Source: Amoebophrya sp. A120 (lineage: Eukaryota; Protista; Dinoflagellata). Taken from it: a stretch of 64,000 nucleotides of DNA. Location of the stretch: the NCBI GenBank assembly GCA_905178155.1, contig CAJINV010000001.1, positions 3,525,675 through 3,589,674 of the forward strand, given 5' to 3'. The notes below the pieces were generated by a model. The model saw only the letters and a list, made by a program, of their open reading frames with translations. It was not told the DNA's origin and did no database searches. The position numbers were made by a program, and so were the translations under genes. Below, piece after piece: positions 1,616 to 33,474 of the stretch. Numbering within the stretch: the first letter of the stretch is position 1; each line of letters begins with the position of its first letter.

Positions 1616-4600
1616 ATGACGTCTCCCAAGGAAGGACGTAAACTTGTCTCCTCTTCGCCCGCAGAGCGAAACATTACTCCGGTGTGTATGGAGAATGAGC
1701 CGGAATCTGGACACGCAGAGAACCTGGCGGAAACCATCCCCCGTGTGTTCAACACGAATTACCGAAACGAAATGCACGCCATTGAGCGCGCACGCTCCGG
1801 GTTGGGGATCGCAAACTTGAACAGCGTCGCCGCAACTGCAAACTCGTCTTCTCAGACATTGTCTGCCGCTTTCTCCACCGCGGCCCATAGAACAAACCCA
1901 ACGCCGCGCAACATGAAAGTGCCACTCCTCGAGCCCGAGGAGGAGCTGGAGGAAGGCGAGGACGAGGATGGTAATGCGGAAAGCGGTCTTTCCTGGCACG
2001 TGATTCAGAACGAGGAGCCAGACTTTTCGACATATCCCATGCACGAGGAAGGCAGCAGCAGCTACGGAGGATATGCTGTTGTTGACCGGGACCACTTAGA
2101 AAGCCATCAACTCGAAGATAACATTCACGACGACACGTCTGTCTTAAGTCGGACCGTGACCCCGCAAAATCGGAATGGGGACCAGGTTGCCGTCCAGATT
2201 TACGAAGACGGTGACTTTCGTACATCATCTTCTTCAGTATGGACGAACAATCACCCGAGCAGTAGAAATACACGCACTTCATCTGGGCAGCACGATCTGC
2301 AACATCGAACCTGGGGGTCCGCACTTCCGCCGGGAAATATGAACAACTGCATTGTAGGAGTTTATGATGATCGAAATCCAGTGCTGATGCTGGATTACGG
2401 CGGAACTGCAGGGACGACCTCCACAGACGAGATGGACAATCTGATGCAAATGCCGCCTTTTCATTCCTCCGAAGAGTACGAATCTGACACAGGATCGCGC
2501 GATTCCGCCGCACTTAGCGAAGACAATTACTTCGAGGACGAGGACGATTATACGCCGGGCGGCAGTTACAACCCCGGGCAGATGAAGCTGCTGAAAAAGT
2601 CGGATTCCCTCCGGGGCTCGAAGCCTGCGCCGGACGGTGCCGTGGTGCCGGTCAAGATGAAACGGTTCACCCGTTTCGAGTCCATCTTCAAGTTGAGTGT
2701 CTTCTGCGGGTACCACCTGGTCGATTTTGGCACCAACATCTTCATCACGTACGTGTGCTTCGTGTGGTACATGAAAACCCTGGAGCTGATGTGGTTGTTT
2801 TCCTTCATCTGCGGCTGCGTGTGCTTTGTCGCCGCCGGCAGCTTTTGTTTCTACCTCTCGGCGGGCGACAAATTTTGGAATAAGAAAATGAGGGAACAGT
2901 ACCCGTTTCTCTCCTGGTTGGTGCGTTTTTTTGTGCTCGGCTTTGGTCAAGGAATGATTTGCAAGTTGGCGTATAATCGCTACATTCGCCGACAGCACGT
3001 CACCGGGGACATCTCAGCCTCGAGCTCCGACAATCCCTACGAGGTAACCAACTGCGCGGCGCCCGGTTGGCGGCTGCACACGAAGAGCTTCGTCGGACTG
3101 TATGAAAGTATAAGTCTAATATTGATTTTGATGACCACACTCTTTAGAAGAGATAACGCTCCTACGTAGTACTTACACTCAGCTGTTTGCTTGTTCTTGC
3201 AGCGGTGCTATAATGTTGAATCTATATTATATATATTCGCATAGTCCTAAGAAAAGTTATCCTGTCTCCACACGCGTGAAATAAAAATTCCCAGGCACCT
3301 TCTTCGCGGGTCTCGCTGCGTTTATGATTACCCACGATTTGACGGGTACGAGCCTTTTCGGCAACGTAATGGTGTACGACCCGGTCGAGCACAACTGGAT
3401 TCCCCTAAACGGCTCGCTGGGCTGGGTTCACTGTGTGGAGACGGTGGTGCTGTACCTGTCCCTGGCGACCAGCTGTTGGACGCTGGCCCACGTGGCTGCG
3501 GAAATTGATTACCGCGTGTCCGGGTTCGTGAAGGAGCGATTCGACCGCAACTACCTGTTTTCTGTGCTCTGCATCGGGGGCCGGATCGCGGAGGTGGTCT
3601 GCACCGTGATGACGCTGGGGTTCTGTGTGCGGGTGATGAACTGTTGGGTGTGCGGTTCCTTCAACTGGGTGGCCTCGTTCTTCTTCGTGGGCTTCTACTG
3701 GGGCCTCGACGTGACCGCACTGGCGGCCGTATCCCGCAACGAAACCTCCGCGGTCGTCCACTTCCTGGTGGGCTTCATGTACATGAGCGCCGACCTGGGG
3801 CGGTTCGTTGACCACCCGGGGTTCGCCCGACCCGCCCGGACCATGCTCAAGTTTGTGTGCGGCAAGCGCGTGATCTTTCTCCTCGTGTTTTTGCTTCTCG
3901 CGTCCTTCACGTACATCCACCGCACGCCGAGCGGGGTCATCATCGACGAGTGCGTGGACGACCAAGCACCCGGCGTGGAAGGGAGTAGCATCTTCGGCCG
4001 AGTTCGTGTGCAGGAAGAGCGGGTTTCCACGACGAGTCAGGTTTTGCAGCAGGGGGTGGCTGAAGATGTTGATGGGGAAGATAGTACAACTTCTATGACG
4101 GGTACTTTTTCTGGTGCAACTGGAGACCACGATGGCGCCGAAACAAGTAGGACGGATCCGACGCCGACTACAGCAGTGAACGACGGAGCTACATCAGTGC
4201 CCCTCGCTGCTCCCTCCCCCTCGCTAAACATCGAGTCGGAGCGGTTTCTTTGGCTGTTGTGGAGTGACAAGCCGTGGCTGACGAGCATGTATCTGATTGC
4301 ACTCTGCGCACACATTGTGCTCACGTTGATTCAGCTGAACTTGAAGTCCCTGCGGCCGGACCGGCACGACATTTTTCTGCTGACCGCGAGCGGGGATAAG
4401 GATACGTTGAAGGAGGTATTGAACGACACGAGTAAGCTAACCGTCGACGTGAACCACCGCCGTGACAACGGCCACGCCGCGCTGCACGTGGGGGCGCTGT
4501 ACAACCAGAAGGAGTGCCTGCACGTGCTGATTTTGTATGCGGGCGCGAACATTAACCTCCCCAACTTCCGCGGCAAGACGGCGCTGTGCATTGCGGCGGA

Positions 4601-7600
4601 GCAGAATCACCGGCTGAGTGCGGAGTACCTGGTGAAAGCGAAAGCGAACGTGAACCTGCAAGACGTGGACGGGAACACGGCGATGCACTTGGCGACGGCG
4701 AAGGGCCATGTAGAGATGATGCTGTACCTGATTCGCGAGGCGCGCGTGCGGCTCGACATCAGCAACGCCGCAAACCGGTACTGGTACGGGATGCACAGCG
4801 AGGCGACCTCCTGGGATGACAAGTTGTTCGGCGACCGGCGGGGGCAGAACGGCAACTGGCTGGTGAATAACCCGTACCTGAACAGCAGTACCCCAGCAGA
4901 TGAAAATGAAACAGCGGGCATCAACAGCACCTCGGCGGTCGTGCCGGCAGACTACGACTTCGATGCGGAGAAAACCATGGCTTTCGTCGCGCCGGGGGCG
5001 CGGCGCCGCGATGAAAACCGGAACCCCAGTCAGGAACTGGTTATGTTGACCAAGCACCCGGCGCCGGGCGGCGGCGGACCCAGCATTGTTCCCGTGGACT
5101 TGCGGTCGGTTGTGGAGCGGCGGAAGGGCGTGCAGCCGCACCAGCGCGGCGGCGGTGGCCTGGGATTTTGCGCGAGTACGGGGAGTTTGATGAAGCTCCG
5201 GGACAAAAGCATGAGCATTCTCGACTCATTGCGATCTGGTGTGGTGATGCACAACAAGAAGCAGCAGGTTCTGGGGGGCGGCTCCTCGTCTACCTCGTCG
5301 TGTAAAAATCATCGGAGAAATAACTCCGTCGACTCGGAGTCCTCCCGGATGAGCTGCGGGAGCACAAATTCGCGGTATTCGGACCCGACGACGACGACCG
5401 CGGCGGTCGACGGCGCAAGCGCGGACTTTTTCTCCACCACGGTGGAGCAGGAGTGGCGCCGGTCCCGCAGGTTATCCAAGGGCACTTCGCTCGGGAGCGT
5501 GCCGGAGGAGCACGAGCACACGCTGGACCACGGCGGAGCGGTGGTTATTTGCGGAGAGCATATGCATGCTTCCTCCAAAGCCGCAACTCGGGCCTCGCGA
5601 TTCTCGGCGATGCCGAGAATCCAAAGTGGCGAGGCGCTGTGGACACTGGACGATGACGGGAACGGTAGTTGTGCGGTGCTGCCACCACCTCCTGTTATGC
5701 CGCCAGCAGGAAATACCCCGGTTCAACGTCCAGATGTTGAGCAGATCGCTGTGATCTCGCATTCGCCTTCAAAAACACGAAAGCTTGATGTGCAGCCCCA
5801 GCTCGGTAGAAGCGCGGACCGCAGGACCTCGGAAATTATTGCCTCGGAGATCGAAGACGAGGAGAACAACTCTGCATCTCGCGCCTCCACGACTTGGCAT
5901 AATGGACCGAGTTGTAGAATTTTTGAGCCAAAAAGTCAACAGCACATTGTCTTCCAAGCGCGAAAGGTCGCGATTCCGCGGAAGAAGGCGAGCCAAGCCG
6001 CCCTGGCGCGCATAAATAGGTCTTGCTCGACGGAGGACGACGCCACGCCCACGAGCGGCACGAGCAAGTTCGCGCACAGCGGGAATGATGCCGTGTCTAC
6101 TTCTGCTACGGGAGGCGGTGCGGGCTCGCAGATGATTGAGATGGGCACATTTGACGCGGGAGCGCCGGAGCGAACGACATCATCAAGCAGCACCTCGGGA
6201 GAAGTAGCGTTTGTAAGCACGCTGGGTGGAGGACCTGGACCACCACCGCATGAGCATTGTGTAGTCGAGGGCTGTAAAAATGCCTCTCGTCTTCGCGAAC
6301 CCGCAAAGTCGCCATCTCCCGAATTGACACGCATCAGTTCCAGGAGCGACGTGGTTGCCCGTGACAACATGATGTCCGAACTAGACGGCGTCGCTGAGGC
6401 TGGTGTCACTGGTGAAAATGGACTGGACAACCACATGAAGAAAGTATCAGAAGAAAATAGCAAATTCGGCGCCTCGGGTGAACAACCTCTAGTACTGACT
6501 GCGCAGCAGGGTGGACGTGAAGAGGGTGACGACAGCTCGACTGTGCGATCTTTATCGCAGCAGCCCGACACCAGTCCGGTTCTTCCGCTACCAAATTTCC
6601 TGCAGGATGCCGCTAATATCACCCGCGGCCGGTCGAGTCCGTGGCCGGAAAGCGGCGGCAAAAATCTGACCCAAGGTACAACAACGACCAGTTCGATGCA
6701 CAGCCAGACGAAAAGTACCACTGCGCAATCGACGGCAAAGCGTTTTTCGAACACGGGCATCCGTGTGAGCACGCTGTTGGACGGCAGTGTGACGCGGGCC
6801 CGGCCGGTGGAAGTGGCGGGCGGCGCGGCGGCCTCGAGCTACAACTGGGTCGGCGTCGACGCCTGGGGAACCGCGTCCACGGTCGAGGTGGAGCAGCCGG
6901 GGCGCACGATCGGAATCGCTCCGGTTCGGGTGGAGCCGACAATGGACGATCCGTACCCGATGCTGCGGACCACGTTGACCCGAACGCATATGGAAGCGTC
7001 AGGATCGAAATCAACAAAATCGAAATGACTTGTGATGCATAAAATCGATATCAGTTGGAGCCTCAGTTTCCAAGTGGCGCATGACAAATTTTGGCAGCAC
7101 CAAAATCCAGTCTGTCGTGCTGTTTGGGCAAAGAGAACTGCTCCTGTCATGCTACTCTGGCAGCACATCGTCTTCCCCCAAACAGGCTTGCAATCGGTCT
7201 CATTTGCCTCCTCTCCAACACAGGCCATGCGTGCCCTACATTTTATGGATTACAAACTTTTTGATTGTGTCGATTTCGATCCTGACACTCCCATAACGCA
7301 GAAGCACTACGTGAACCCCTACTACAGCAAGGACCCGATCGAGGACAACGTAGTCGCCCACATTATCACATTTGAAAACGTCCCCACCCCATAGTTGTAA
7401 TGCAAATCTGCATGCTGAAAATGTTACGCATGCGGAGCCCAATGAGAAGCATTTTTTAGTCGTGTTTTGGAATTTGTCATGCTCCAATCAGCATGGTATA
7501 CTAGATCTGTAATGCTGCTGAGCTACCTCAACCAGCACTACACTACGAGTCCAAATTTGTCATGCAAAACAGCCAAAGCTTGTGGATTTGTCTAGCCGAT

Positions 7601-10600
7601 TCCCCATCTTGACTATGGTATGGGGACGTTTTTATGCAGGATACACATGCTGCGTCCCTGCGGGCTGTCGAGTCTGATTTTCGCCACCGCGGCCCCGCAC
7701 TTCGTCGGAAAGTCGTTTCTCCGCACCGTCGAGGAGGAGCGGCTCGCTCTGAACCCGGAGCAGAACACCGGCCAGGAGGGCAAGTGGAGTCCCACCTACA
7801 ACAGCGCCAAGCGGGCCGGAACGAACGCGGACCAGCCAGACGAGCTGGAGAGGAGACGGTCCGATCGGTCCGGCTCCGACGGGGGCGGGTCCCGGGACAG
7901 CACCCCAAACGTGTTGCTGAGCACCAGAAATTCCCGCTGCAACAGCGCGGACAGCAAGCAGGACCTTTTTGCATCAAAGTGCAAATACAACCAGGACCCC
8001 GCAAGGGGGTTGATGGAAGGAGCTGGTCAAGAGCTACAAGCAGTAGCGGGCCAAAACGAACTACACACGAAAGGAGCTGGAGCAGGGATGTCCCATCCCC
8101 TGTCGTGCACCAGCATCGATTTCAACGGGGGCACCCAGCGACAAGTGCAGAAAATGCTGCTGCGCCGAAACAGCCGCCCACCGCCGAAGCGCAAGGACCC
8201 GCTCGAAAACGTGGACTGGAACAGGCTGGGGCCCTCGGACTTCAACTGCCTGAAGCTGTTGGGTCAAGGAACGTTTGGATCCGTGATCAAGGTCTGCATG
8301 CGGGACGACCCGCGTGTGAATTTGGCAATGAAGATCATCGTGCAGAAGCAATACAAAGTGCAGAACATCGTCAGTCGCTACTACGCCGAAGAGCACGTTC
8401 TGCGAGCGTTAAAGCACCCGTTCATCGTGTTGCTATACGCCTCCTACTCGACCCCGCTCCATTGGCTTCTGGTATGCACAGCTTATTTTATTTTGTGATT
8501 CTGATTGCGAGCCTCTCTTTCAGGAGGTATGTGAAATGAACTTATTTTTGTCGGAGAGTCCGCGAAAAAAGTCTTATTTTATGTCCCAAATAAAGGTGAT
8601 GGAGTACTGCCCGGGCGGGGACCTGCACGACTGGCTCGTGCAAGAGGGGACGCCGGGCTTGCTGCCAATCCAGGTGCTGAAGGCCGGTACGGAAATCTTA
8701 TTGGCGCTGGAGTACCTGCACGGCAAGGGCATCGTTTTCCGCGACCTGAAATGCGAAAACGTGATCCTGTCTGCCCAGAAAACCTGCCGTCTGACGGATT
8801 TCGGGCTCGCCAAGGAGGACATCGGGGCCACCGACACGGACGGGCTGACCTCGTTCTGTGGCAGCTACGGGTACTGTGCCCCGGAGGTGCTGGCGCTGAA
8901 GGACAAGAACCGTCGCGGCGGCGAAATAAAGTCGCCCAGTAGGAACAAGGCGGACGAATTAGTCCGTGGGTTGACGAACGGAAAGGACAACAGCAAGGAG
9001 AGCAAGAAATACGGTACCGCGGTAGACATCTACTCCCTCGGGGTCGTGCTCTACATGCTCGCCACGGGGGGACACATCACGAAAAAGACCGAAACCAACA
9101 AAAAGCGGTCGCCAAACAGAAATGATAAAGCGGCAGGCACCAGGGTGGTCAACACCCCGCGAGATGGTGAAGCGGGAGCAGACGGCGGTAAGCAGGATAA
9201 AAATCTTGCCAGGGCGGGGAGGGCGGCTGGCGTCGACCTGAAGCGAGATCCGTCGGGAAATCTTGTCGTCGACACCGCCGTCAATTCGACGGCCGCGAGA
9301 AATTTTGCAAAGAAGAGTCTGCCGACGTCTATTCAACAGCGACCGCGTAATTCGAGGGAAAAAGGGAAAGAAGACGGTGCGACAGCGGCTTTATTTCAAC
9401 AACATGCACCTCCGGGAACCAAGAACCCGACACTGACGGACCGACCAGCGGTTCTGGTGGACGAAGGCGCAGATCCGCGGAGATTAGATTTTCGGCCGGG
9501 CGACAGAGTCACGGACGTGCTCGGCATCAAAGAGGCGGGTGGAGGAACAGCAGACAGGACTTCTACTAGCAGGGCGAGAGTCAAAATGTCGGTCGCGAAC
9601 GAAAGAGATCCACGTGCTCTGAGGACTGGACGACAAGAGCAGAGGGTTGCCCCATTTGTGGAGACTACAGAGAACCGATCCCGCAGTTCTTCCAAAGCCA
9701 CGGAGGGGAGTAGTTTGGCCGGCCGCCGAGCTGTTCATAGGAATGCCGCAAATAATCCGAATGCAGTAAAGAAAAAGGACCACCAGCACCACGAGGTTTC
9801 CCTGGGCACGGTGGCCGCGGTGCTTTTCCCCTTCAGTAAGAACTTCAATTTTTTGCACCCCTCGGAATCCAGGGGGGTTCTGGACCTCTCGCAAATCGAG
9901 ACCAAGGAGCAGACCGAGCTGCGGTTTCCCCCGAACTCCCCGGAAGACTTGCACTTAGAGCTGGCCTACATGATGGTAAAAGACAATCCCACCATGCAGC
10001 TGCTGGACGAACTGCAGCGGCTGGAAACCCTGAAAAGACAACAATACGCGGCCAAGAAGGCTCTGAACAATACGAATCCTACCCCGGTACCACGGCCGCT
10101 AGCCACCGACAACACCCTGCGGACCACTGGAGGTGGCGAAGTTGGCGACGGGGCGAAAGAAAAACAGCAAAGCGGAAAAATGAAAAAGATAGTGGCCGCC
10201 GGGGAAAAGGAAATGACGGGAACAAGACCGGACCGGAATTCTACAAGGGACGACGCAGCACGACCACACAGACAGGATCTTCGGCATCGGCAGGTGGGGC
10301 CGCCTCCTCCGGCTGGACATCATACTAAAAACCATGTTCAAGAACGGCATGAAGGGACGAGCCAGCAATCTGTTCATTATAACGGCGGTAGCAATCGGAC
10401 GCGGTGGCAGGGTCCCAGCAAGGAGCAGTTACGGTCCGTGAAGGACACCTACGAGCGGTTTAAGCAGCACCCACATTTGCTGGAGCTCGTCTACACCATG
10501 ACGAATCGAGATCCGCACTTGCGCGGGTCCTGCTCCACCGTACGCTCGTCCAAGTACTTCATGAATGTGGACTTTATGCTCGCCTTGGTGAACAGCGGCC

Positions 10601-11946
10601 GGTACTTCCGGGACATGCAGCGCCGGCGCGAGAAAGTGGAAAATCCGTTCAGGCACCGGAGCGGGAGCGGCACGAGCAGCCAATACCCGAGCAAGAGCGA
10701 GTTATGTGCTGCAGGAGGACAAAATGTTGAGCCTGTGGCGGCTGCGGCCACCACCGCAATTAGTGGGCAGCGCTCGTCCAAAAGTAGGGGAGATCGGAAT
10801 TACTATCTTGCCGGGGCTAGTAGGACATCTGGGCAGGTCGACGCGCGGCTACGGCCTCAATGCGAGCGTGAGGAAACTACAGAAGGAACAACCCGTCCGC
10901 TGCCGGTCGTGCACCCGCGCGAAAATACTAAGCCCGTGCGGCCACGTGACGCTGGAGTTGTTGCAACGTCGTCTATGTCGGGGAGAGTTCTTGCAGGAGG
11001 CGCATCTTCACAAGAGCAGGATGAACCACTTCAAACGAGAGCCGGACCCACAGCAGCTCCCGTGATGCCGCCGCTGCGCGATCTTAGCAGGAAGACGCGT
11101 GGCCAACATCAAGAATGGGGCCAACGACCCCCGCCCCTGAGAGATGAAGAACATCGACAGATGCCGGTGGTGCTATCCAACGAGGCTTTGTCACGGCACG
11201 AGAAGAAATTTCCCGCGCAGCACTTTCACCAGGCGAATAACGGGCAGCAGCAGTTTTTTGGCCACGAAACAAGGGGCTCTTCGCCGGAATCGTCTCGTGT
11301 GGCGGGAGTTGATGTAGCGGCAATGGCACCTCCTCTTCATCTGGGACGAGGCGGAGGACTTACACAGGCTGTTGCGCGCGGAAGAAGCGAAGACAGTGGC
11401 CGAGGAGAGACCACTTATTCTGCTCTCCCGCTTCGCGGAACATCAACAAGCGCGACATCATCTTCCACCGCGATGGTGATGCACAGCCAGAACAGTAGTA
11501 CTGATCGAAGCAGCTCCAGTGCTCGGAAGGAACGGGTAAGAAGAACCGTACCAGACACGACAGCGCAACAAGAAGACTTGGATCGGCACGATCGGAGCAT
11601 CTCCGAGGTGGTGGACCCCAGAAGTTCTTACGCGAAGGGCCGCTTTACGACTAGCACCCGGGCAACAATGTCTTCGCCGCTGGACGATTCGTTTTGCGAG
11701 GTCGGCAGGATAGTAAAACCTGGTCGCAGCACGAACAAGAGCACTTCTAGGTCCAGCATTCCGTCCGCTAGAGAGACAAGGCAGGAGATGCTAAACCCGA
11801 CCGGCGATGTTGATGATCGTGATGAACAAGAAGATTGTTCCTTTTTGCGCCAAATCATGGCGCATCCACGGACCACTCAGCTCGACGGGCAAGAAGACTT
11901 TGCTGTTCTAGGTGCTCGAAATGGATCTCTATCGTCTGCTACATAA
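1616..11946 (+). CDS. About 3140-aa multi-pass membrane (XK-related-like) + ankyrin repeats + AGC-family Ser/Thr kinase; exons 1616-3107, 3295-6988, 7301-7363, 7649-8471, 8596-11946
   Basis: TM helices with XK-like motifs (HLVDFGTN, GLYES, SCWTLA). Ankyrin repeats (GHAALHVGA, GKTALCIAA, GNTAMHLAT). Kinase motifs LGQGTFGSV, AMK, FRDLKCEN, DFG, CGSYGYCAPE, DIYSLG. Two GT-AG introns plus two TIR/TSD introns give one open frame of 9423 nt. Confidence 0.75.
6989..7295. mobile_element. Introner E1: TIR element acting as a non-canonical intron (312 nt removed with one TSD copy)
   Basis: About 57-bp imperfect TIR (tatggaagcgtcaggatcgaaatc… / …gatttcgatcctgacactcccata). Direct repeat ACGCA at 6984-6988 and 7296-7300. 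Contains an in-frame TGA. Removal gives …TR-TQKHYVNP…. Confidence 0.85.
7364..7643. mobile_element. Introner E2: TIR element acting as a non-canonical intron (285 nt removed)
   Basis: TIR tatc…aaaacgtccccaccccatagt / actatggtatggggacgtttt…ggata. Direct repeat CACAT at 7359-7363 and 7644-7648. Removal gives …VVAH-MLRPCG… into the kinase frame. Confidence 0.85.
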
Positions 11947-12612
11947 AAGGAAGCTTGCTCTTCGGTGGTATGTGATGCGTAAACATAAAGAATAAAAAAG
12001 GATCATGATGATCTGCTCTTATGACTGTCGACGGCTTTTGTTTATCAGTGGAGGCCTGCTGCGTGGGTGTTGTTCTGCGGGATCTGTTCAAGAGACTGAA
12101 TGACTCTGGCGACTCGAAGCAAAACAAAATGTGCCCATGTCAGAGGCCCGGGGCCGCGCGCGTGGTGCGTATTGGCAAAGCGATGTTCGATACGATTTTT
12201 GTGCGTTTGCAGCGGCGATATCGCTGCATACTTACGAAAATGAATTTAGATATAAGAAAGGAAAGACCAAAGTGATCCTTTTCCGGTTCAGGTTATGGCT
12301 TCGGGATGAATCTGATAGAATTTCTGCAAATGGTTGTTCGATTGACTGAACAAAAGCGGGCCGGAATTGCAATGTTCTTTTTCATCTCAAATGCAGGAAA
12401 GTAAGTGATCTTAATCTATTTTAACGATACGCATTGTTATTTCTTTGACTGAAAAGAAATGCTAGGCGGTGCTGGTCGCTGTTTGCCCAGGGTGCTGATG
12501 CTCTGCGTATGGGCCGATAGCATTTTTAGCAGAGGCTGGGTTAATTTTCGCAACGCATGCATTCCTCCGCTGTTGGGGAAGTAATGCCTTCCTGTTTGTA
12601 GCAGGTTTCGGC

Positions 12613-15600
12613 ATGGATCTTGTCGACAAGACGCGGAGCAGCTGGGGTACCGTGCTGCAAAGGAGGATGCAACGGACGTCTTTTCTTACTGCACTCGGCG
12701 GTAGTACGTTCTCTCATGTTGGCGAGCAAAAGACGCACATCATCGCTGCACACCGGGGGGACATCTCCGGAGCGATAGACGGTCTGCGCAGTACTTCTAG
12801 CAGCCCGACTTCTTGTTCTGGCGGCGACTGCAAAGCAGCCGAAGGTAGTAGCACGGCACCGACGTTTTTGGCGGTGACTCCCGGCTCACCGAGTAGGCGT
12901 GGTGATACGTCTCCAGGTGTAGAAGTGGGTCTGTCAGCGGCGCATCCACCCAGGAGAAAAGGCGCTTGTCTCGGGCCGCCACGTTTGCCTGTAGATAACA
13001 AAAACCTGAAACAGTTCTTCAAGTCGCTTCCGGGCGCTATCTTGAGTGCTGTTCCAGAGGAGGAAGCGACCACGCCCACTCTACAACCGGATCTGCAAGG
13101 AGGCAAAAGCGCAGTTCGGAGCCCCGAATCTTCCGAGAGTGACGATACTAACAGATGGGAACAAAAGAGGAATCCTCTGCTTGAGCTGCGCTCCAAAAGT
13201 GAGGTGCCAACCGGTTGCAAAGTAGATCAACATCTCGGAAGCCATCAAACGAACCCGCCACACAAAAGTTTTCTTTTGCGCATCGGCGAAAGCGGTACAG
13301 CTGCAGGCGGCCGAGGTGCAATAACGACGTTGGGCGATCTTGGATACTCTGACTTGCAGTCGGAAGCGATTAAGTGGCCATTCCGAGGACACCGAAGCAA
13401 ATCCGGCGCAAATGGACGAAGTGGACAGAGCGGAGAAGACAGCAATAGAACCATGACCGCAGATTATACTGCAACACCGTCTTCTACCAATCCGAAAAGC
13501 ACCAGTGTCGCTAAATCCCTCGGCGAAGGGGCAGAGTCAGGATCCGACTTCAAGGAAGGTGGACCTTGTTCCAGTGACGATGTGTCCCAGTTGGACGACC
13601 ACAAGGGGTTCAAGAAGCAGAGTTCGGGGTGGTTCCGGATCGGATTGCGTCAAGCGCAGGAGCCCGGTAGAAGTACGGGTGGAACTTCATTCCGTCGCCC
13701 CCCAGTGGGCGGAACGAGCAGCAGATTTGGAGTTGTGTCCCGGATTTGCCGCGGAGCGCCGGCGTTCGCACGCATTTATGTGCACTTGCCGCCGGTCCTG
13801 GGGGGAGGACGAGGAGGCGCTTTGGCGACGAACCGGGCGGCCTCAGCTTCGTCTACTTCTTCTGGTGTTAAAGCGCGAGTAGTGTCGTCAGAAGAGGACA
13901 AGAACTACTCGTGTCGGCTGTTGGCGGACAAAGATTGCTCTTGCTGTGCGCAAAACCACGAGCCGGCAACAGCTTGCGTTGGATATAATTATAATCCAGC
14001 TAGTTGTCGTGCTCCAATAAATCACTTTGACGTCGGGAACTGCCGTAGTACCTCCGAGGTCGGAGAGGAGGAAGAGTACAGACTTGCAAGACCCCACGAG
14101 GATAGTTTGAATGGCGGGTCCAACGGTAGTATCGTGGGGCGACCGTCGGATCATGACAAGATGGTGGTTCATCTGGTGGCAGAGGTGTGTCACCGCATGC
14201 TCACTGACCTAGCGGACGAAAAAATGCTGTCCTCGTCGTGCTGCGCGGAGATCTCGGTGTCAGACGCCGCCGCCACACTGTTGCGGGACCTCCTGGTGGG
14301 TGCCAGTGAGGACGCAGTTATGTTTTTGCGACGTGCGGACAACTACCGTGTGTGGCGTGCACGTGAGGTCGGATCTGACAAGGACGTCTCGCCTGCGACG
14401 GAGCGTCTGCTGCTAGACATGCTGCGGAAGCGGTTACAGAACGAGGAGAAGAAGCTGCGGCAGAAGGGGGCAAAAACGCAGAATCCGGCGCCGGCCCCCC
14501 AAGAACTACGAGCGAACCAACATGTTTATCAAGCGTGGGCGACCGAGGCGCAGGTCGAGGAGCTGCTGCAGGCCGCGCAGGACCGGAAGCGCCAGCGCCA
14601 ACTCGAGTCGACGTACAAGGAGGTACAACGGATCACCCGTGTCTTGGAGCGGACGCTCGCTTGCCAGTACGCCGCTGAGACCACAGAACCGCTCAGACCA
14701 CAGGACCTGCAGAGGCATAGCGCAGAGATGAAGCAAGGCCATGGCCTCGTACAAATGCTGAAAGTGCAAGTTGTACACCCTGGTGTCCGGGAAGTACAAA
14801 AAGTACATGCGGACAGCACATCAGCAATATCTTCAATCCGAAGCATGTCGCACCAGCACCAGGACGAGTCGAAGGCGGCACCTCTGCGCCGTATTGACGC
14901 TCCAGTGCCAGTTTGCCTCCAGGATTTGACAAGTGACGAGATAACTGACCAAGCACTCGAGGCCGGTGTTTTTGTCGCATTGGACGGCCGCGTGGTAGAC
15001 ATCAAAACCGCCGAGGGCGACGAGTGTAGTGTTCCGGTGGCTGTCGGCGGTGTTGGGAACGGTGAGTCAGTACATCAAGAACTACTACACGAAGGAGCTA
15101 AGAGCTGTGACGCAGCGAAAGAGGAGAGAGCTGAAATCTTCGAGCTCGACAAGAACAAAAACGACGGGGCCGCCGAGCTCTACCAGCATCCGACCGAGGA
15201 GGAACTGCGGGACGATTGGCTCCCAAACAAGGATGAATATGCTGACGAGGAAGTGCGAATGAACGCAAACGAGGACTTCTGCCTGGAACAGATTCTGAGC
15301 GCGGGAAGCAACGACCTGGGCGGGGACGACTTGTCGAAAGACTCTGTGTCGCAAAAACTTTTTCAAGAACTACAAACGGATAAACTAGACGACGTCTCGA
15401 CGGCCGACCTGCTTTCGAATCCCGCAAGCGAAACCGCGATGGAGGAGCCGCTCCCGGAGGAAACCACGCCCTGCCCCGCGTACGACCCGCAGGCGCCGCC
15501 CCACCCCTTGTGCCAAGCGAAACCGGACGAAGACTTGCTCGAGTGCCTGCAGGGAGAATGGGAGTGCTGCTCCGAAGCGGTGCCGCGGGACCTTGAGCAT

Positions 15601-16353
15601 TTCGCGGAGCGTGCGGCGGCGGGGGCGGGGGTGGGCGTCGGCATGAATGCGAACAAGAACAAATCCGCAAACAGCAAGACTACCCCCTGCGACAAAGCGG
15701 AAGCAAGTTCAAGTAGTGCTTGTTCCAGGTCTGGCAGGAATAAAAAGATGGTTCCCGCTTGCGAAGTCACGTACTTGAAGGCGTTCACTGTGGTTGGTAA
15801 AAAAGTGACCGAGCGCCGGCTACGGGAGGTGGTGTCTTCACGCGAGACGGTGCACACGCGCGAACTGCGACTGGAGCCGGCCCGGCATTGGCTGGGGTTT
15901 GCAATGGAAGGTCGGCCACTGGTAATTTACAAGTTTCCGAATATTTTCGGCGGTGCGGTCTTCGTACGGCGAATCGGACGGACGACGTCGATTTGCTACC
16001 GGCGCAAGCAGGATGCAGCGTTATTTTCGGCGGCAGGCCGGGGTCCAGCTCCGGCCTCGTGCAAGAACGACGCGGCAGCCAGTTTAAAAGAGCCGTGCCT
16101 CCGCCCGGATGCAACGCGGGATAATACTACGGCAGCTTGCACAGAAGTTAATACAGCTAGCCCAGATTGTTCGTTACAGCGACAGGTAAACAAAAATGAA
16201 GTCGAAAAGCCGGTAGCAACTACATCACCGGTCGAAGATAAGGTGAAGGATGCAGCCTTCCCAGAAGGTGTTCTTCCACTGGCAAAGGGAGAGCACTGCA
16301 CATACCAGGGGGCGCCGCAGTTGCCGTCGCCCTTTCCCGTGGGCTTGTCCTGA
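12613..16353 (+). CDS. Hypothetical 1246-aa protein, largely low-complexity with a central helical/coiled-coil segment
   Basis: Long uninterrupted ORF with coding-like GC3 blocks. No family motif recognised. Confidence 0.6.
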   Translation: MDLVDKTRSSWGTVLQRRMQRTSFLTALGGSTFSHVGEQKTHIIAAHRGDISGAIDGLRSTSSSPTSCSGGDCKAAEGSSTAPTFLAVTPGSPSRRGDTSPGVEVGLSAAHPPRRKGACLGPPRLPVDNKNLKQFFKSLPGAILSAVPEEEATTPTLQPDLQGGKSAVRSPESSESDDTNRWEQKRNPLLELRSKSEVPTGCKVDQHLGSHQTNPPHKSFLLRIGESGTAAGGRGAITTLGDLGYSDLQSEAIKWPFRGHRSKSGANGRSGQSGEDSNRTMTADYTATPSSTNPKSTSVAKSLGEGAESGSDFKEGGPCSSDDVSQLDDHKGFKKQSSGWFRIGLRQAQEPGRSTGGTSFRRPPVGGTSSRFGVVSRICRGAPAFARIYVHLPPVLGGGRGGALATNRAASASSTSSGVKARVVSSEEDKNYSCRLLADKDCSCCAQNHEPATACVGYNYNPASCRAPINHFDVGNCRSTSEVGEEEEYRLARPHEDSLNGGSNGSIVGRPSDHDKMVVHLVAEVCHRMLTDLADEKMLSSSCCAEISVSDAAATLLRDLLVGASEDAVMFLRRADNYRVWRAREVGSDKDVSPATERLLLDMLRKRLQNEEKKLRQKGAKTQNPAPAPQELRANQHVYQAWATEAQVEELLQAAQDRKRQRQLESTYKEVQRITRVLERTLACQYAAETTEPLRPQDLQRHSAEMKQGHGLVQMLKVQVVHPGVREVQKVHADSTSAISSIRSMSHQHQDESKAAPLRRIDAPVPVCLQDLTSDEITDQALEAGVFVALDGRVVDIKTAEGDECSVPVAVGGVGNGESVHQELLHEGAKSCDAAKEERAEIFELDKNKNDGAAELYQHPTEEELRDDWLPNKDEYADEEVRMNANEDFCLEQILSAGSNDLGGDDLSKDSVSQKLFQELQTDKLDDVSTADLLSNPASETAMEEPLPEETTPCPAYDPQAPPHPLCQAKPDEDLLECLQGEWECCSEAVPRDLEHFAERAAAGAGVGVGMNANKNKSANSKTTPCDKAEASSSSACSRSGRNKKMVPACEVTYLKAFTVVGKKVTERRLREVVSSRETVHTRELRLEPARHWLGFAMEGRPLVIYKFPNIFGGAVFVRRIGRTTSICYRRKQDAALFSAAGRGPAPASCKNDAAASLKEPCLRPDATRDNTTAACTEVNTASPDCSLQRQVNKNEVEKPVATTSPVEDKVKDAAFPEGVLPLAKGEHCTYQGAPQLPSPFPVGLS

Positions 16354-17080
16354 GGGTAAGGAGCCCTAATACCGTGAGAGCTACGATTCTGTTTTGTCGT
16401 GAAGTAGATTAGATACGCCTCCTAGTTTACCGTTTTAATTTTAAAATTTTTTTCCGAAGGTAAGACAAAGACTCTTCTGGATATCATATTGTCGAGATAC
16501 GTTCTGGCATAGGAGGATTTGCGTGCCTTGCTGTTGAGTCCTCATCAACTCGATCATCTTATCGGAAAAAGGTTTGTATGAAAGGGTACCGAAAATTATT
16601 TTGTAACGTTGCTCCTGCTCCTTTTTCCCGCTTGTATAGTATTGTATCGAATGCGTTAGCGTTGTAGTTTTATACTTCATTATAGCGAGGTCCTCGTTGA
16701 AGATGGGTCCTCGTTGCTGAAGTTGAAATTGATTCTGACTGCATGATATTTTCATGGTGCTCGTCTGGCTACAACATTTGAGTCCTTTTTTGCTTTCAAA
16801 TTCAGTATCGAGTTGTCTGCAAAAAGTAAATCGCCCATTCTCGAAGATTCCAAAAAGAATTTCATGCGTGAGATACACTTTTGTAGGCCCTCACATAATC
16901 ATAAACTTGTTTGGATATCCCTTCCGAGTGGAATTTTTCGATTTTTTTAGACCGAGTTCTCTTTTTTCTCTTTGCTTTACTTGCCGAGATAAAAAATGCT
17001 ACCTGGGGAAACTACCTCTCTCGTGTATCTGAATTATCTGCACGATGCAAGACAGTAGACTAATGGTAGAACTCGACTAC

Positions 17081-17142
17081 GTTGCCCATGGCATGGGCAA
17101 CAAGCATACGAGTAAAGCATGATGCTTTACTCGTATGCTTGT
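17081..17142. repeat. Two abutting perfect palindromes (10-bp and 21-bp arms, 1-nt G spacers)
   Basis: gttgcccatg-g-catgggcaac (17081-17101) and acaagcatacgagtaaagcat-g-atgctttactcgtatgcttgt (17100-17142). Confidence 0.95.
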
Positions 17143-17879
17143 GTCTGCATGAAATGGAAAAAATAGGATTTCTAACTTTGTCTCTACGGATATGAAACTT
17201 TCAGAAATGCAGATTGCTAGGTCACGTTGGTGATCATATCTGTCATTTTCTGATAATGTCGTACTGGATTGCGGCAGAACTGCATCTGGAAGTAGATCAT
17301 CAAGGATACCATGCTCTATACCACCACCGACAAACTTTGACGGTGCGTGTAGATTTCCTGGCGGGGAATCAGAAATGTTGATGTTCAGCCTTAGATTTTG
17401 ATGACCATGAAGAATACAATCGCGAGCGAGGGCTGTTGCAAATCGCCGAGAGACATCATCGTTTCAACATTTTTTGAAAATAAATAGAAGAAGAAACAGG
17501 GTGCTCAGTGTGCAATGATGCGGATGCTTCATTATAGGTTTTGAAGCAGTGATCAATACTCTCTGACAGGAGGATGAATCCTGCCAAAAAAGGCGCGTTT
17601 ACTACAAATGGTTGTTGATATCCCCACACATTGCTGAGCTTACATTAATTTTTTGCTTCCCCTTACGAGACGTCGCATCATCAATAGTCTTGATCCTTTT
17701 GTAAACTACGTGCACGTGCCGCGCACCAGATCAACCACCACCTCTTCATTGTACTTTGTCTGATTTTGATTTTTCGCAATGTGCAGGAACTACGACGGTC
17801 TCAACGACGTGTATTTGCTTCCGCTTGGTACAAGTTCAATTGACAATTGAGTCATCATGATGCGAGGCCTAGTTGCACC

Positions 17880-19403
17880 ATGTTGCGCGTGTGTGGCCTA
17901 TCTGGAGATGACGAAGTTTGCGTGCCGCTCCACCACGTCAGTCACTTAGCCACCGTTGGCGAGCTAAAAGCCTTTCTCGCGGACCGATGGCCGCGGGCTC
18001 CCCCACCGTGCATTATTTTGCTCCAAGGAGTAGATGACGACAATTTTTTCGAAAATGATGAAGGACCCTCACCAGTTGCTGACGGCACGTCGCCGGAGGT
18101 GGCAGAAGCAGAGGTGTCAAGAGTTGTTACATGCGCTCCACGAGGACATGAGATGGAGAAGCAGGATCAACGACAGACGAGGACTCCTGAACATAGTCTG
18201 GGCGGCCCAGAGAATACACCTGGCAAAAACACAGCGGCGTCCAGTACGAAAGCCACTTCATCCAGTACAACAGAGGGTCAAAACTACTACGTCCATGGTG
18301 AGGACGAGAGCGAGGAGGTGGGCGAAACTGCGCTGCGTTTGTTAATCAAGCCCCCGCAGTTTGTGGACAGCGTACCTCCTGCTAGCGACTTTTCCGCGAA
18401 CGCGCCGCCCATGGCTTTTCTGGACGCGGCCTTCAGCACGACCTATTTGGGGCCGGTCGTGTTGGATTGCAACGCGCTCGAGGCGATGGAGGTGTTTCGC
18501 CAGTTCCTGTACTGGTTTCGGGAAGTCGACGACGCCTGCGCTACATCCGTACCGCTGCTGCAGCACGTGGTACAGAATTACGGATCCGAGATGGTCTGCA
18601 TCATAGTGGAACGTCTCCTGCGGCTCAAGGCACACAGAGTGCTCGGGGACTACGTAGAACACGGGACCACGAACAGGGGCGGTGAAGAAGAGACCTTTAT
18701 TTTCAACAGCGCTGCTGCCTCTACGTCTGCTTCCAGGGGCACTACTTCTCCAGCAGCCGCGAGAATAGTAAATGCCTCCTACAACGAAGCAACCGCGTTC
18801 GGAGGTGCGTCGGTGCTCCACCTTCTTCTTCGCGGAATCCTGAAGCCCGTGCCGCTGCTGCCGCCAGATCGGAAGCTTACGAGCCAGCTACTCACCTACC
18901 TCGAAGCACTTCTCATCCGGGTACTGCGCGAGGCCACGCCGGAGTCGCTGAACACGACCGGGAAATTTGCGGACGAAGAGAAAAACTGGACCAGCCAGGT
19001 CTGTGAGCTCTTTGCCAGTGCAATTCTGGGTTTAGAACTCTTAACTCGCCCGGATCTGGAAGTTTCCACTTTGCTGCAAATCGCGCAGAGCCGGGACCGC
19101 TGCTGCACATGCCTTGTGGTCGCCACGGCTAACGGGCATTTAGCGGTGTGCGAAAAGATCGTCGAGAGACTGGGGAAGCATCTGGATCAGAAGTATCTCC
19201 GGGTTCGGTACCCGGTCACGCGGCAGCCGAATGTACTGGGGCAGCTCCGGAAATCCCTCGGCTACGTGTTCGAGTCTTCCGCGCAGTGCGGGGGAAAGAA
19301 CGCAGCGGAGATATGCGTACACAACGTGAGCCGGATGGGGGATCAAGCGGAAGAGTGGCTAGCTCTTTCCGAGCAGCTCAAGCAGCTGGAAAAGAAAGGA
19401 TAA
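17880..19403 (+). CDS. Hypothetical protein; possible N-terminal ubiquitin-like fold and degenerate ankyrin repeats
   Basis: N-terminus MLRVCGLSGDDEVCV…TVGELKAFL. Ankyrin-like segments GASVLHLLL and CLVVATANGHLAVCEKIVE. Confidence 0.55.
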   Translation: MLRVCGLSGDDEVCVPLHHVSHLATVGELKAFLADRWPRAPPPCIILLQGVDDDNFFENDEGPSPVADGTSPEVAEAEVSRVVTCAPRGHEMEKQDQRQTRTPEHSLGGPENTPGKNTAASSTKATSSSTTEGQNYYVHGEDESEEVGETALRLLIKPPQFVDSVPPASDFSANAPPMAFLDAAFSTTYLGPVVLDCNALEAMEVFRQFLYWFREVDDACATSVPLLQHVVQNYGSEMVCIIVERLLRLKAHRVLGDYVEHGTTNRGGEEETFIFNSAAASTSASRGTTSPAAARIVNASYNEATAFGGASVLHLLLRGILKPVPLLPPDRKLTSQLLTYLEALLIRVLREATPESLNTTGKFADEEKNWTSQVCELFASAILGLELLTRPDLEVSTLLQIAQSRDRCCTCLVVATANGHLAVCEKIVERLGKHLDQKYLRVRYPVTRQPNVLGQLRKSLGYVFESSAQCGGKNAAEICVHNVSRMGDQAEEWLALSEQLKQLEKKG

Positions 19404-19940
19404 AAAATCTTCAATGTGTCTGTTGTCGGGACAGTTACGGTAGAAATACAAGCGACGCATGATTATATCAGGTGTATGCGGTACGCATCTTCAAAGCGCA
19501 TCAGATCCTCACAGCCGCGGGCTCGACATGTGTCATCATTTGGAAAAGACGTGTTCGTGAATTGCGATCAAGAAGTAAGTAGAAAGAATAAACTTGCTGA
19601 CGTTCGACAGATCATGCTTAAGTAAGTACTTCTAAGCGACTTAGATCAACAAATAGAGCCTAATTTTGCTGATGCTGAATCAATCTGCAATGCTCACACT
19701 TTGAACACTATGTAATTGCGCAGGCAGTATATGTGTAAAGTTTGACAGAGTCAGAATGCTGTTTTTGTCATAGTAGGCCTAGAAAAGGCTTCTATAGGCA
19801 AAGGGATGAACTGCATCCCTTAGAAGATCTCCTTATGTCATAGAACGTAAAACTTTTTAGATGTAGATCATCAGTATTTCGCTTTAGAGGGTGCAGGACA
19901 TTTTCTGTCTTTGCTACCGGTCTATTAAGGAGAAGAAAAT

Positions 19941-20873
19941 ATGATCACCACTTTCAGTGACGACGAGGACGAGGTCGCCGGGTACCAAGTGGAGAGCCTT
20001 ACGGAAGCGGGCGAAACTACCTTCAGCAAAGGCTACGAGCCGCTGATCCGCAACACGCCCGCTTTCGAGCAGGGTTTTTTCGAGGATGTGTCCGTGCTCC
20101 GGCTGCCGCAAAAGCTGGCCCGCGAAGTCCAGCAACCGGGGGCGCAGCTCGAGTTTTGCGGCGACTACATCCTTCTAAACGGCATCCGGTACCCGTGCGC
20201 CCACCACCAGCTGCCCTACCCGGTGGAAGCGTTCGAGGAGCGGTTTAAGGTGGCTGATGTGCAACACATATCGGTGGTCGATGGGTCCAGACCAATAATA
20301 CCAGGGGAAAATCGTAAAAAGAATAAACCGCCACATAAAAGAACTCAAGCGGGCCGCGAGATGAACAACAGCGCAGATGTGCGCGGAACAGCATCTGGTA
20401 CTACACCTGGAAGACATAAAAATCCTGCAGATGATGAAAACGTCGACCTTGATATCGACGAGGAAGGAAATTATGAACCTCCCGGTACATCAACTAAGCA
20501 GCCGGGAGATCATGCTGACGACATTGACGAGGAGGGGGCACCTCCTACTTTACAGCAGCCCCGACTGCTCGAAAAGGTCCCGGACTGCGTGAGGCCACAG
20601 AGCATGGGTCTCACGAACGTGCGACGACCGAAGAAGAAGCCCTCGGGCTTCACGGACGAACTGTTGCAAGAGGCTTGGGTCGCACTGGAGGAGCTTGCGA
20701 CAGACGGCGACTACTCGTACTGCGAGGACATTGTCGAACTGGACGAGGAGGCGTATTTGGAGCTGCGCCAGAGACACCGTGCGCAAGAATGGTTTCCGCC
20801 TGACGACAGTGCCTTCGGTAGCGGGGCGGATGAGGATGACACCAGTAGCTCCGGCTCCGTTGATTCGGACTGA
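19941..20873 (+). CDS. TAF7 (TAFII55 N-terminal domain)-like protein
   Basis: Motif order VLRLP…NGIRYP…QLPYPVEA…FKVADVQHI…GLTNVRR resembles TAF7 LRLP/LVDLPCIVES/KTADISQM/NVRKRRF. Acidic C-terminus. Confidence 0.5.
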   Translation: MITTFSDDEDEVAGYQVESLTEAGETTFSKGYEPLIRNTPAFEQGFFEDVSVLRLPQKLAREVQQPGAQLEFCGDYILLNGIRYPCAHHQLPYPVEAFEERFKVADVQHISVVDGSRPIIPGENRKKNKPPHKRTQAGREMNNSADVRGTASGTTPGRHKNPADDENVDLDIDEEGNYEPPGTSTKQPGDHADDIDEEGAPPTLQQPRLLEKVPDCVRPQSMGLTNVRRPKKKPSGFTDELLQEAWVALEELATDGDYSYCEDIVELDEEAYLELRQRHRAQEWFPPDDSAFGSGADEDDTSSSGSVDSD

Positions 20874-21116
20874 CCGGAAAATACGAGCAGATGCGATGTC
20901 ATTTTTTCGACGACTTGAGTGTAGTTTAGTTCACACCACGACATCAATAAGGCGACAAGTATCTATTCATATCGGCACCTTGTTTGGGTAGCTTCTAGAA
21001 TAACAACGCACCTACCTCATGCTGGTTGGAATCTTTTCTAAGCACTATCGAATTGTTGTCTCCACAGCAGGTCCTTCTAGTTCTGGGCGACACTTACGAC
21101 TTGATGGTGTCAGCCA

Positions 21117-21168
21117 GATGCGTTAACGACAAATATCTGCACGGCCGATGCGTTAACGAAAAATATCT
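21117..21168. repeat. Direct repeat, 2 copies at 30-bp period (gatgcgttaacgaMaaatatct)
   Basis: Copies at 21117-21138 and 21147-21168 with 1 mismatch. Confidence 0.85.
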
Positions 21169-21783
21169 TCCACCGATCGCGTAGCGATCAAATTTGCGTT
21201 TCCGCTATAGTTCTGACATTATAATTTGAAATACACCAGATCAGGAGGAAGATCGTTTTGTATAAATAGGTTTCATCTGTTCCATTGTGCTACTAACGCT
21301 CGAGTTGATCTACTATCTTGAAATGATGAAGATCTTTGTGTTGCATGGACACGAAATAGCAAGTCGTCGATTCAAAATATCTTTATTGCAGAAACACTCA
21401 AAGATAAACTAAAGAACACGATCTCGTCGTTTCCTCGTCTGTTCTGGAGATAAGACAGTCTTCGATTTGTCATCTGAGCGACAGGTGGGGCTGGCAGAAC
21501 GAACCGAGAAAGCGACTATTTTTTTGTTGTGGCAGTACGAAAACGACAGCGACCACCAACAATAACAAATTAATTAACGAAAATGAATGATGTAGAATCC
21601 ATGAGCCTCTGAACACCTCCAATGAGACCCGTTATGGTAATTGCTTCTGAAAGTATGTTGTGCGCTCTCTCGACTAGAGAGTTCAGAAAAATATAGCCTT
21701 CCCAGCGGGACACGCAGTCGTCTGTGCCGGGACCACGCTAGTGAGTCATCCCTCTACAACGAGACCACCACGACTTCGGCAAC

Positions 21784-24700: not shown

Positions 24701-25535
24701 CAGGCGGCACCAAACCAGACCCCATCCGGAGGAGTTATTCAAGAACCTGTCTCCCGATGAGATGATACACCAGAAGTTGACGTTTATCGGAGTGGAAGCA
24801 AACGCGAGGCGTGTCGCGATGGAGGAGCTCGGGCGCCGGCACAAGCTAGGAAAAGCGATTCGGAGTATAGTTTAGTTTTGTCAACAACCAGTTCATCTTT
24901 TTTGTACTGTCCTCACATTCGCCTTCGCATGAACACTGATGAAAATACAGTGAATTGCACTGATGGATTGCTTGAGCACGAAGATTTCCCTTTTTTGCAC
25001 GACAACAGATAAAGACACGACCGCGACGCACAAAGTTTTTGGGACGCAAATCAAAACCTTTCCGGGGCGCGTGGAGGCACGTGTGGCCCACACGCTGGCC
25101 GGTATGGCCACGGTGTACCCGGAGGAGACTCACGTGGACAACCAGCAGATCGTGCGCTTGGAAGATGACCGGTTCATGGGCCCCACGCTGAAGGCCCGGG
25201 CGACGATGGCGATGCGGTACAACCTGCTGATGGGCGGAAATGTCTCGTACACGGGGAAGGGGCTGGAAGACGTCCGCGTTTTGCAGCCGGTGCTCCCCAT
25301 GGACGAGGCGGGCCGCAGCATGGCGTTCGAAGGAGGCTTAACGGCCGCGGGCGGTTTCACGCAGGCCGTCGCCGATCATGGCGGCTTCACCGAAATGGGG
25401 GGCGGCATGAGTGTGGTGGACGACATGATGGGAGGTGGCGGTGGCATGACCGTGCACGGCATGGACGTGGATCAAGGCGACAGCGACGAGGACGAAGATG
25501 CGAAGGCTAGAAACGAGAAGTTCGCGCTTTACTAA
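21784..25535 (+). CDS. Putative nuclear protein with K/A/P-rich basic N-terminus, long D/E tract and coiled coil; 8 exons (introns 21967-22104, 22238-22397, 22463-22598, 22865-23047, 23476-23641, 24260-24642 GC-AG, 24865-25008)
   Basis: Phase-compatible splice sites join the fragmentary ORFs 21784 to 25535 in frame. Confidence 0.7.
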
Positions 25536-32515: not shown

Positions 32516-33474
32516 CGGCCGTGCAGAGATGACCTCTCGCGGTTTTTGTTCGCCGAGAGTCGGACTGTCGAACTACCAATCGCCCGTTGGGCGCTAGAAG
32601 TCCTATAGCCATCGATCCGAAAAGGGGAATGCTAGCTGCTCTGTGGTGCAAACCATTGAAGATGTTGGAGGTGTGATCTTTTTACGTAGAGCAATTTCGC
32701 CTGGGGAATATGAATGCTAGTTAGATTTGACTATCCTTCCATTATGATTTTGTGCAGCGGGTCGAGCAGCGCTCCGCACCTCGTTCTCCTTCGGAGAAAT
32801 AGCATTTTTTTTTCTGATGCATTCATCGATCCCAACCCGCAATCATGTTCGTCTTCGTTGCTGCCGTTGATCCTTTGTGCATTGCCCATCGTGAAAACCA
32901 AGATTAGCTTTGCAGTCTTCTTCGGTTTCGTTCATGATTTAGCCAATATCGTGCATCACGTTTACTTTCGTCTTCGTGTGTGTGTCACCGCATTGCCTTC
33001 GTGCAAAAGTCGTTCTTGCCGCAGAACGCTGCCCATCGGTCGCGAGTATAACGTCCGACATAAAAATCGTAAACTAGTAACATACGATCATTAACTCTGA
33101 TGGATTCTCAAAAACAGTGCAAGTAGAGTAAAATTAGCCTTTTCCTATACGTATCCCGATGTAAACATGAAAGGTACTAAACTCCCCCGTATGTTTTGAC
33201 CCTTCTTCTACCAATTTGAATGTGTCTCGCTCCCAGATCGTGAATGTTTTCAATTACCCCGGTCAGGATCTAATACGTAGACTTTTCTGCTCCAGCACAC
33301 GACGAAAAATTATCTGCAAAATAAAGCGCACGTACAGTATCGACTGGGCGTAGTTGCTAATGGTTGCTGCACCAGCAGTCGTAGAACATCTCAGGGGCGA
33401 TTCGTGAAGGTCTTCATTCTACGGTGGAAGGAAAGCTGTTCTACTCTCGCGGTGAAAGGACCACAAGGGAAGCA

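Follow-up and report, generated by a model that had tools for sequence, protein, structure and literature searches.

The window analysed here is a 64,000-nucleotide (nt) stretch of Amoebophrya sp. A120 (contig CAJINV010000001.1, positions 3,525,675 to 3,589,674 of the forward strand). Near its start, an ankyrin-repeat coding region and a protein kinase coding region are separated by two transposon-like elements, E1 and E2, with a short exon between them. The parts of this locus, in window coordinates, are:

3285-6988, + strand: upstream coding exon, a stop-free frame with its first ATG at 3324
6984-6988, + strand: upstream target-site duplication of E1, ACGCA
6989-7295, no strand assigned: E1, 307 nt, ends TATGG...CCATA, a long terminal inverted repeat (TIR), one in-frame stop
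7296-7300, + strand: downstream copy of the E1 duplication, ACGCA
7301-7363, + strand: exon of 63 nt (21 codons), its borders slidable within the duplications
7359-7363, + strand: upstream duplication of E2, CACAT
7364-7643, no strand assigned: E2, 280 nt, TATC...GATA, ends of the TAT-N7-AAAA type, five in-frame stops, a high-copy family
7644-7648, + strand: downstream copy of the E2 duplication, CACAT
7649-8471, + strand: exon with linker and kinase N-lobe; the start ATG (8013) of the public protein P0001 lies inside
8472-8595, + strand: predicted ordinary GT-AG intron interrupting the kinase domain, with the same join in P0001; outside the contig joints
8596-11946, + strand: last exon, encoding the kinase C-lobe and a long tail and ending in the stop codon TAA at 11944-11946

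E1 and E2 are non-autonomous DNA-transposon copies with TAT...ATA ends and a 5-bp target duplication, presumably inserted by a TIR transposase. The arms of E1 are 86% identical over 37 nt and can be extended to 57 nt at 82%, and its direct repeat amounts to 6 nt (AACGCA from 6983), overlapping the last base of the arm; in E2 the arm core (7375-7395/7612-7632) is 21 nt long and 90% identical. The GC content of both is below that of the surrounding coding sequence (0.46 in E1, 0.43 in E2), both fold strongly (z = -6.95 and -3.46), and Rfam gave no match at E <= 1 across 6900-7750, self-splicing intron and small nuclear RNA (snRNA) families included. Elements with TAT...ATA ends, a 5-bp duplication and an arm score of at least 22 occur three times in the window and not once in each of 20 block shuffles; the build is therefore not a product of chance.

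A sequence-only reading of this DNA had proposed that both elements carry in-frame stops and that deleting each with one duplication copy restores a single frame, and both statements hold. The stops lie at 7026 in E1 and at 7392, 7398, 7416, 7443 and 7593 in E2, and the frame from 3285 to 11946 is open once 312 nt, 285 nt and the GT-AG intron 8472-8595 are removed, each of the first two lengths being a multiple of three and equal to the element plus 5 nt. None of the seven registers tried for E1 or the six tried for E2 gives GT-AG, as had been claimed, and neither element has the GT/GC-AG borders of a major (U2-type) intron; one E2 register (7362-7646) reads AT..AC. The nearest canonical candidate, 7350-7639, is indeed out of frame (290 nt), but in-frame GT-AG introns that span both elements and the 63-nt exon are possible on paper (6974-7639 and 6998-7639), so the sequence alone does not force non-canonical excision and RNA evidence is needed.

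Assembled contigs supply it. In X3 and X5, with one contig per run, we found a joint 6982>7295 (312 nt, six letters ambiguous) and a joint 7358>7644 (285 nt, five letters ambiguous), at a depth of 5.1 in X3 and 3.1 in X5; the 64-letter side equals the distance between both joints, which fits a single contig bearing both. These are the predicted junctions, with precise removal of each element together with one duplication copy, and they point to non-canonical excision despite the GT-AG alternatives on paper. X3 and X5 are one sample and their RNA status is inferred, no run being recorded as RNA: X3 and X6 are judged RNA-like from intron skipping, X5 only through the shared sample. Over the scanned 6400-26300, X3 and X6 skip each of the six GT-AG introns within 21964-25009 and have little depth between genes, and thus behave as RNA. 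X1 crosses the same six introns in one contig, 7605-26300, with 0 differences and a flat depth of 42, has neither the E1 nor the E2 joint and spans the element borders (pieces 7269-7399 and 7605-26300), and thus behaves as DNA. Six other joints (7016>7268, 7094>7176, 7295>7375, 7296>13890, 7413>7581 and 7483>7601) were rejected as splicing on account of short sides and repeat-free joints, and four of the six also occur in X1; all are taken as other element copies.

Three further elements of this build lie in the window:

24263-24646, no strand assigned: E5, an older element in another gene, TAT start and ATG end, duplication AGGCT/CAACT
40067-40216, no strand assigned: E4, 150 nt, duplication AACAA/AGCAA
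48750-49011, no strand assigned: E3, 262 nt, near-perfect arms, duplication CGCTC

E5 constitutes a third non-canonical intron (24261-24651), in a gene that is well expressed and has six ordinary introns; contigs of both X3 and X6 skip 389 nt there, again the element plus 5 nt. Deleting E3 with one duplication copy yields a locally open frame. Excision from DNA, or an element-free allele or strain, would make the contigs empty sites, and precise loss of element plus one duplication copy does resemble an empty allele, with X1 and X3/X5 coming from different samples. However, X1 bridges the element borders at depth 42 without a joint, the X3/X5 pieces of the gene match the window with 0 differences, and E1, E2 and E5, three distinct elements, are all skipped in the same runs; we regard this explanation as barely credible. 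E1 and E2 are very likely real introns of the introner class published for A120.

The excision probably joins two halves of one gene. The upstream frame has hydrophobic segments at amino acids (aa) 91-109, 190-208 and 331-349, followed by ankyrin repeats (Pfam, aa 400-490) and a long low-complexity linker, and Pfam places the kinase over 8247-8471 and from 8596 onward. P0001 (CAD7923726.1, Amoebophrya sp. A120), identical to the kinase half (100% over 1269 aa), begins at ATG 8013, after E2, covers 8013-11946 and is annotated as kinase-only. In X3, depth is 5.2 upstream, 5.1 across the joints, 4.97 downstream and 13.4 in the last exon, and RNA-like contigs end at 12080-12129; this reads as one 3'-biased transcript. 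A transcript end near 7028, which would have made the kinase a separate gene, was looked for, and neither a contig end nor a 3'-end rise in depth was seen there. Ankyrin repeats occur in 96 of the 120 kinase relatives listed, although not in the 13 best non-self matches, and in the dinoflagellate relatives P0015, P0021 and P0026 hydrophobic segments precede the ankyrins, which precede the kinase, the order of the joined model. An N-terminal profile of the 11 top kinase matches hit the upstream exon weakly (E = 0.016 among 201 sequences), one of 34 longer kinase matches did not match that exon, and homologue searches with the regions flanking the junctions found no orthologue of the junction region. 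The continuous frame, the even depth and the domain order of relatives make the proposed ankyrin-kinase link likely and the public model likely short: P0001 probably represents the downstream half of a membrane-ankyrin-kinase protein, without about 1,360 N-terminal codons, and a single mRNA of some 2,630 codons is probable.

A hairpin between short direct repeats is a known substrate for template switching by reverse transcriptase, and joints of that origin would leave ankyrin and kinase as separate genes. The kinase-only annotation of P0001, the 13 ankyrin-free best matches and the confinement of the joints to contigs of one sample would suit such an artefact. Against it, the joined path is as deep as its flanks in X3, no transcript end appears near 7028, three relatives share the joined domain order, and E5 is skipped by element plus 5 nt with only two repeat bases remaining. 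The family data below add that retention would disrupt the frame in all 117 oriented elements and that duplication mismatches favour third codon positions, and we consider the artefact very improbable.

The intron class is already known, in A120 itself, which the sequence-only reading had not recognized. The text of Farhat 2021 (PMC7789003) reports that more than 60% of A120 introns are non-canonical, 29,850 of them repeated, with inverted repeats, direct repeats of 3-5 nt and the inverted-repeat motif TAT + 7 nt + AAA; it leaves the position of the borders unknown. E1 and E2 resemble those introners in organism, inverted repeats at the ends, 5-bp border repeats, multiple copies and co-oriented genes, their lengths are near the 240-nt A120 mean, and that text likewise identifies no transposase. 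The motif TAT + 7 + at least three A is present in E2, E3, E4, E5 and the family logo; in E2 the 3' arm is exact and the A run of the 5' arm begins one base later. E1 has the TAT only, with no A run at 11-13, and arms of 37-57 nt compared with 8-20 in Farhat 2021. Non-GT-AG borders with RNA-like support are shared, the support here coming from one-sample contigs rather than the three-read criterion of that paper. Added here are the gene-model correction, the duplication statistics, a 25:25 orientation count and the upstream-copy retention seen in an older element; orientation independence and register are not reported in the covered text of Farhat 2021 (PMC7789003).

Relatives of both elements abound in a metagenome assembly. 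The E2-arm pattern scan gave at least 132 metagenome loci, at least 114 of them from JACKZZ01 contigs, with long flanks for 80 of the 132, and the family counts below rest on the JACKZZ01 matches listed. Nineteen matches elsewhere (18 metagenome, 1 viral) were dropped beforehand; considered as relatives, they were rejected, three having nearby inverted repeats that are unrelated (among them what we take, by its motif, to be a RAYT-like gene, and an AT-rich repeat). The claim that E1 and E2 are transposon-derived and multicopy is borne out on two counts: summed contig depth of the element bin in X1 is 31761 as against 42, with contigs running from element ends into other flanks, and JACKZZ01 holds full-length relatives of E1 (74-89%) and E2 (67-86%), as well as of E3 and E4. 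Its loci contain 240 TAT...ATA elements (9 in the shuffle), with a median length of 279 nt and a maximum of 1384 nt; an exact duplication of 5 bp was found in 160, of 4 bp in 2 and of 6 bp in none, and all six E1-family copies have direct repeats. Their arm logo reads TAT, seven looser bases, then A4-5.

An internal motif, TTGTCATG, is present in 182 of the 240 elements and in E1-E4. Within the window, TTTGTCATGC recurs at 7079-7088, 7473-7482, 7556-7565, 40134-40143 and 48790-48799 and is common to otherwise unlike elements (15 matches versus 5.4 expected; core present in 182/240 relatives); it is possibly a transposase-binding site. Two JACKZZ01 loci (L045 826-1898 and L021 1815-2489) carry TAT...ATA elements whose arms differ in sequence and whose flanking repeats measure 4 bp; these may form families of their own. 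The JACKZZ01 contigs, for example L003, L058 and L079, belong to a eukaryote dense in the same introner families and offer a possible second genome for comparing polymorphism and empty sites. A 3-kb contig with a 426-aa open reading frame (ORF; L044 1300-2610), by eye resembling a virus-type capsid gene, is an unrelated chance match.

Host strands were called with a window-derived codon model, concordant in 35/36 multi-element loci (31/35 in a second run) and upheld at 10 variant loci rechecked. Retention would break the frame in 117/117 confidently coding cases, and mismatches between duplication copies favour third codon positions in the joined frame (21/55 sites versus 17/95, p = 0.011); the JACKZZ01 elements are predicted to be spliced.

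The duplication is not what the cut reads. Across the 117 oriented elements, read in gene orientation, its base composition is flat, and a GT-AG register exists in 8/117 in sense versus 10/117 in antisense. A register ending in AG is available in 64/117 versus 44/117 (p = 0.013), an excess rejected as a signal because coding strands here carry 1.3 times more AG than CT. Mismatches are evenly spread over the five duplication positions (9, 5, 6, 7, 7), and a direction-of-mutation comparison on them gave 18 versus 13. The largest family divides 25:25 between the two orientations, with L016, L050 and L058 each holding both within one locus; there is thus no oriented internal signal, and the signal is symmetric, compatible with a stem.

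The main rival to a modified spliceosome is a stem-cutting enzyme, in line with the stem-guided excision proposed by the sequence-only reading: a protein-only, euglenid-like nuclease-ligase that recognizes the ends, makes its cut a set distance away from the terminal RNA stem, joins the exons and frees a circle or linear intron. The strong terminal stems, the equal orientations and the unbiased duplication are in keeping with this, as are the report that U1 was not found in A120 (Farhat 2021, PMC7789003) and the euglenid nonconventional introns described in PMC11282704, which have TIRs and repeats resembling target duplications and are released as circles without lariats. Arm mismatches at positions 4-25, however, are G-U-compatible no more often than incompatible (149 versus 139, p = 0.6; per element 55 versus 57), and folding does not differ between sense and antisense (n = 179); no selection on an RNA stem is thus visible, in a comparison whose power is limited by young copies. 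Changes at arm position 3 broke pairing five times and preserved a wobble pair not once, contrary to pure pairing, and the contig that skips six ordinary introns also skips E5, whose stem is weak. Guidance of the cut by the stem, as claimed earlier, is not shown by these data, although the symmetric signal does fit a stem, and we treat the nuclease-ligase as a tentative but real contender.

Register and arm asymmetry suggest a different signal. RNA-like contigs of E5 retain upstream duplication bases 1-3, and in L079 (1859-2138, predicted frame) a stop is gained unless the upstream base is retained at position 4, which together place the 5' cut at TAT or one base before it. Among 181 elements (1 in the shuffle) collected with a finder that ignores the three terminal bases, the third arm base varies in nine 5' arms, one of them doubtful, and in no 3' arm (p = 0.004), two further 5' variants having come from an earlier finder; by this post hoc count (9:0), the A at the third base from the 3' end never varies. 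All seven ordinary introns examined start GTAT or GTAC. Taken together, ordinary donors, register and asymmetry are suggestive of a donor N|TA(Y) combined with an unvarying A close to the 3' end.

The 5' arm begins with TATCCT in 83/181 elements, and a cut one base before TAT would yield N-TATCCT, near the minor (U12-type) donor RTATCCTTT (consensus from PMC2846911, in the part of that article covered). A diverged minor spliceosome, whose acceptors are variable, could accordingly be considered; the AT..AC register of E2 fits it, and Physarum has transposon-derived U12 introns with short inverted repeats, according to the covered text of PMC11282704. Yet none of E1, E2, E3, E4 and E5 starts TATCCT, the arm bias of that motif is not significant (33 on the 5' arm only versus 21 on the 3' arm only, p = 0.13), and AT-AC is possible in only 4/117 elements. 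No UCCUUAAC branch site was seen at the 3' ends, those of E1 and E2 included, and the text of Farhat 2021 (PMC7789003) reports U11, U12, U4atac and U6atac as not found. We judge this explanation improbable.

Our preferred reading, to which we give a probability of roughly 0.5, is that E1 and E2 are excised by an altered, U1-less major spliceosome that reads the element ends. Farhat 2021 (PMC7789003) reports in its text U2, U4, U5 and U6 and 83 of 89 spliceosomal proteins, with U1 and the minor snRNAs not found. The 5' cut would fall one base before TAT, such that the intron opens N-TAT, like an ordinary GTAT/GTAC donor whose demand for G has been relaxed; branching would occur at the unvarying A of the terminal ATA; and distance would determine the 3' cut, which would lie four bases inside the downstream duplication and need no AG. 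With both signals on both arms, an element could function in either orientation, and the hairpin may help by bringing the ends together rather than by being read base by base. A precedent is Fritillaria, in which, according to the covered parts of PMC11282704 and PMC13326754, the major spliceosome handles transposon-derived non-GT-AG introns.

Several observations weigh against this reading. The evidence consists of assembled contigs, one per run and from one sample, with no lariat, circle or raw junction read among them; the raw RNA runs X11, X12 and X13 lack the gene (0 reads in X11; 173 in X12 and 73 in X13, all element fragments with other flanks), X6 is too thin at E1/E2, and a gap in contig cover at 4404-4704 leaves RNA continuity through the ankyrin repeats unsupported. 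The RNA data fit a cut after position 4 and one after position 5 alike, and G at duplication position 5 (35%) is not enriched over the flanks (about 32%), whereas a relaxed G-TAT donor could be expected to prefer G there. The arm asymmetry is post hoc; of the 25 positions tested no other reaches p < 0.01, and correction brings it to about p = 0.1. The sequence context of the invariant A is not a yUnAy branch consensus, and 7 nt would be an unusually short distance between a branch point and the 3' end. E5, moreover, is spliced with arms only 16/30 identical, such that the landmarks are loose.

A broader proposal, which we hold as speculative and rather doubtful, is that A120 introners embody a splicing code without fixed border dinucleotides, with a donor N|TA and a branch A on both strands and a 3' cut measured off over four bases of a random target duplication. 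If true, an element could insert at any site and in either orientation and be born as a perfect intron, which would explain the invasion, and the unknown register of some 30,000 introns would be fixed. Diverged duplication copies such as those of E5 make the splice register readable in existing RNA-seq, and the difference between 5' and 3' arms is a cheap genome-wide discriminator between a modified spliceosome and a stem-cutting enzyme. No paper resolving the excision mechanism was found among those that literature searches on A120 introns listed, a coverage that extends to the legends of the Farhat supplement figures.

Other systems share parts of this picture, as described in the covered portions of the papers cited. 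Introners generally (Gozashti 2022, PMC9860276; Gozashti 2025, PMC12130899) are TIR DNA transposons with target duplications turned introns, and A120 is named there as introner-rich; the families described carry or co-opt GT/GC/GA donors and AG acceptors, whereas the A120-type duplication has no such bias. Euglenid nonconventional introns (PMC11282704) are alike in non-canonical borders, a TIR stem, duplication-like repeats and an origin resembling miniature inverted-repeat transposable elements (MITEs), but have CAG/CTG inside the stem, pyrimidine|purine borders and circle release, belong to an unrelated lineage and differ in end motif. Fritillaria borealis (PMC11282704, PMC13326754) has MITE-derived introns without GT-AG and a modified major spliceosome, as proposed here; it prefers AG-AC and AG-AT borders, keeps U1 and has a duplicated U2AF, whereas A120 shows no preferred dinucleotides and U1 was not found.

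Elsewhere in the window, nested inverted repeats (29-, 21- and 78-nt arms) occupy 46047-46631 between two long ORFs; their ends are not TAT...ATA, and they are perhaps another element type or a nested insertion. A perfect 21-bp hairpin with a 1-nt loop lies in an AT-rich intergenic stretch at 17100-17142. Nearly all long ORFs of the window (1-64000) are on the + strand, like co-oriented Amoebophrya gene blocks; a second ankyrin protein lies at 33385-38640, and 61837-63999 encodes a P-type ATPase.

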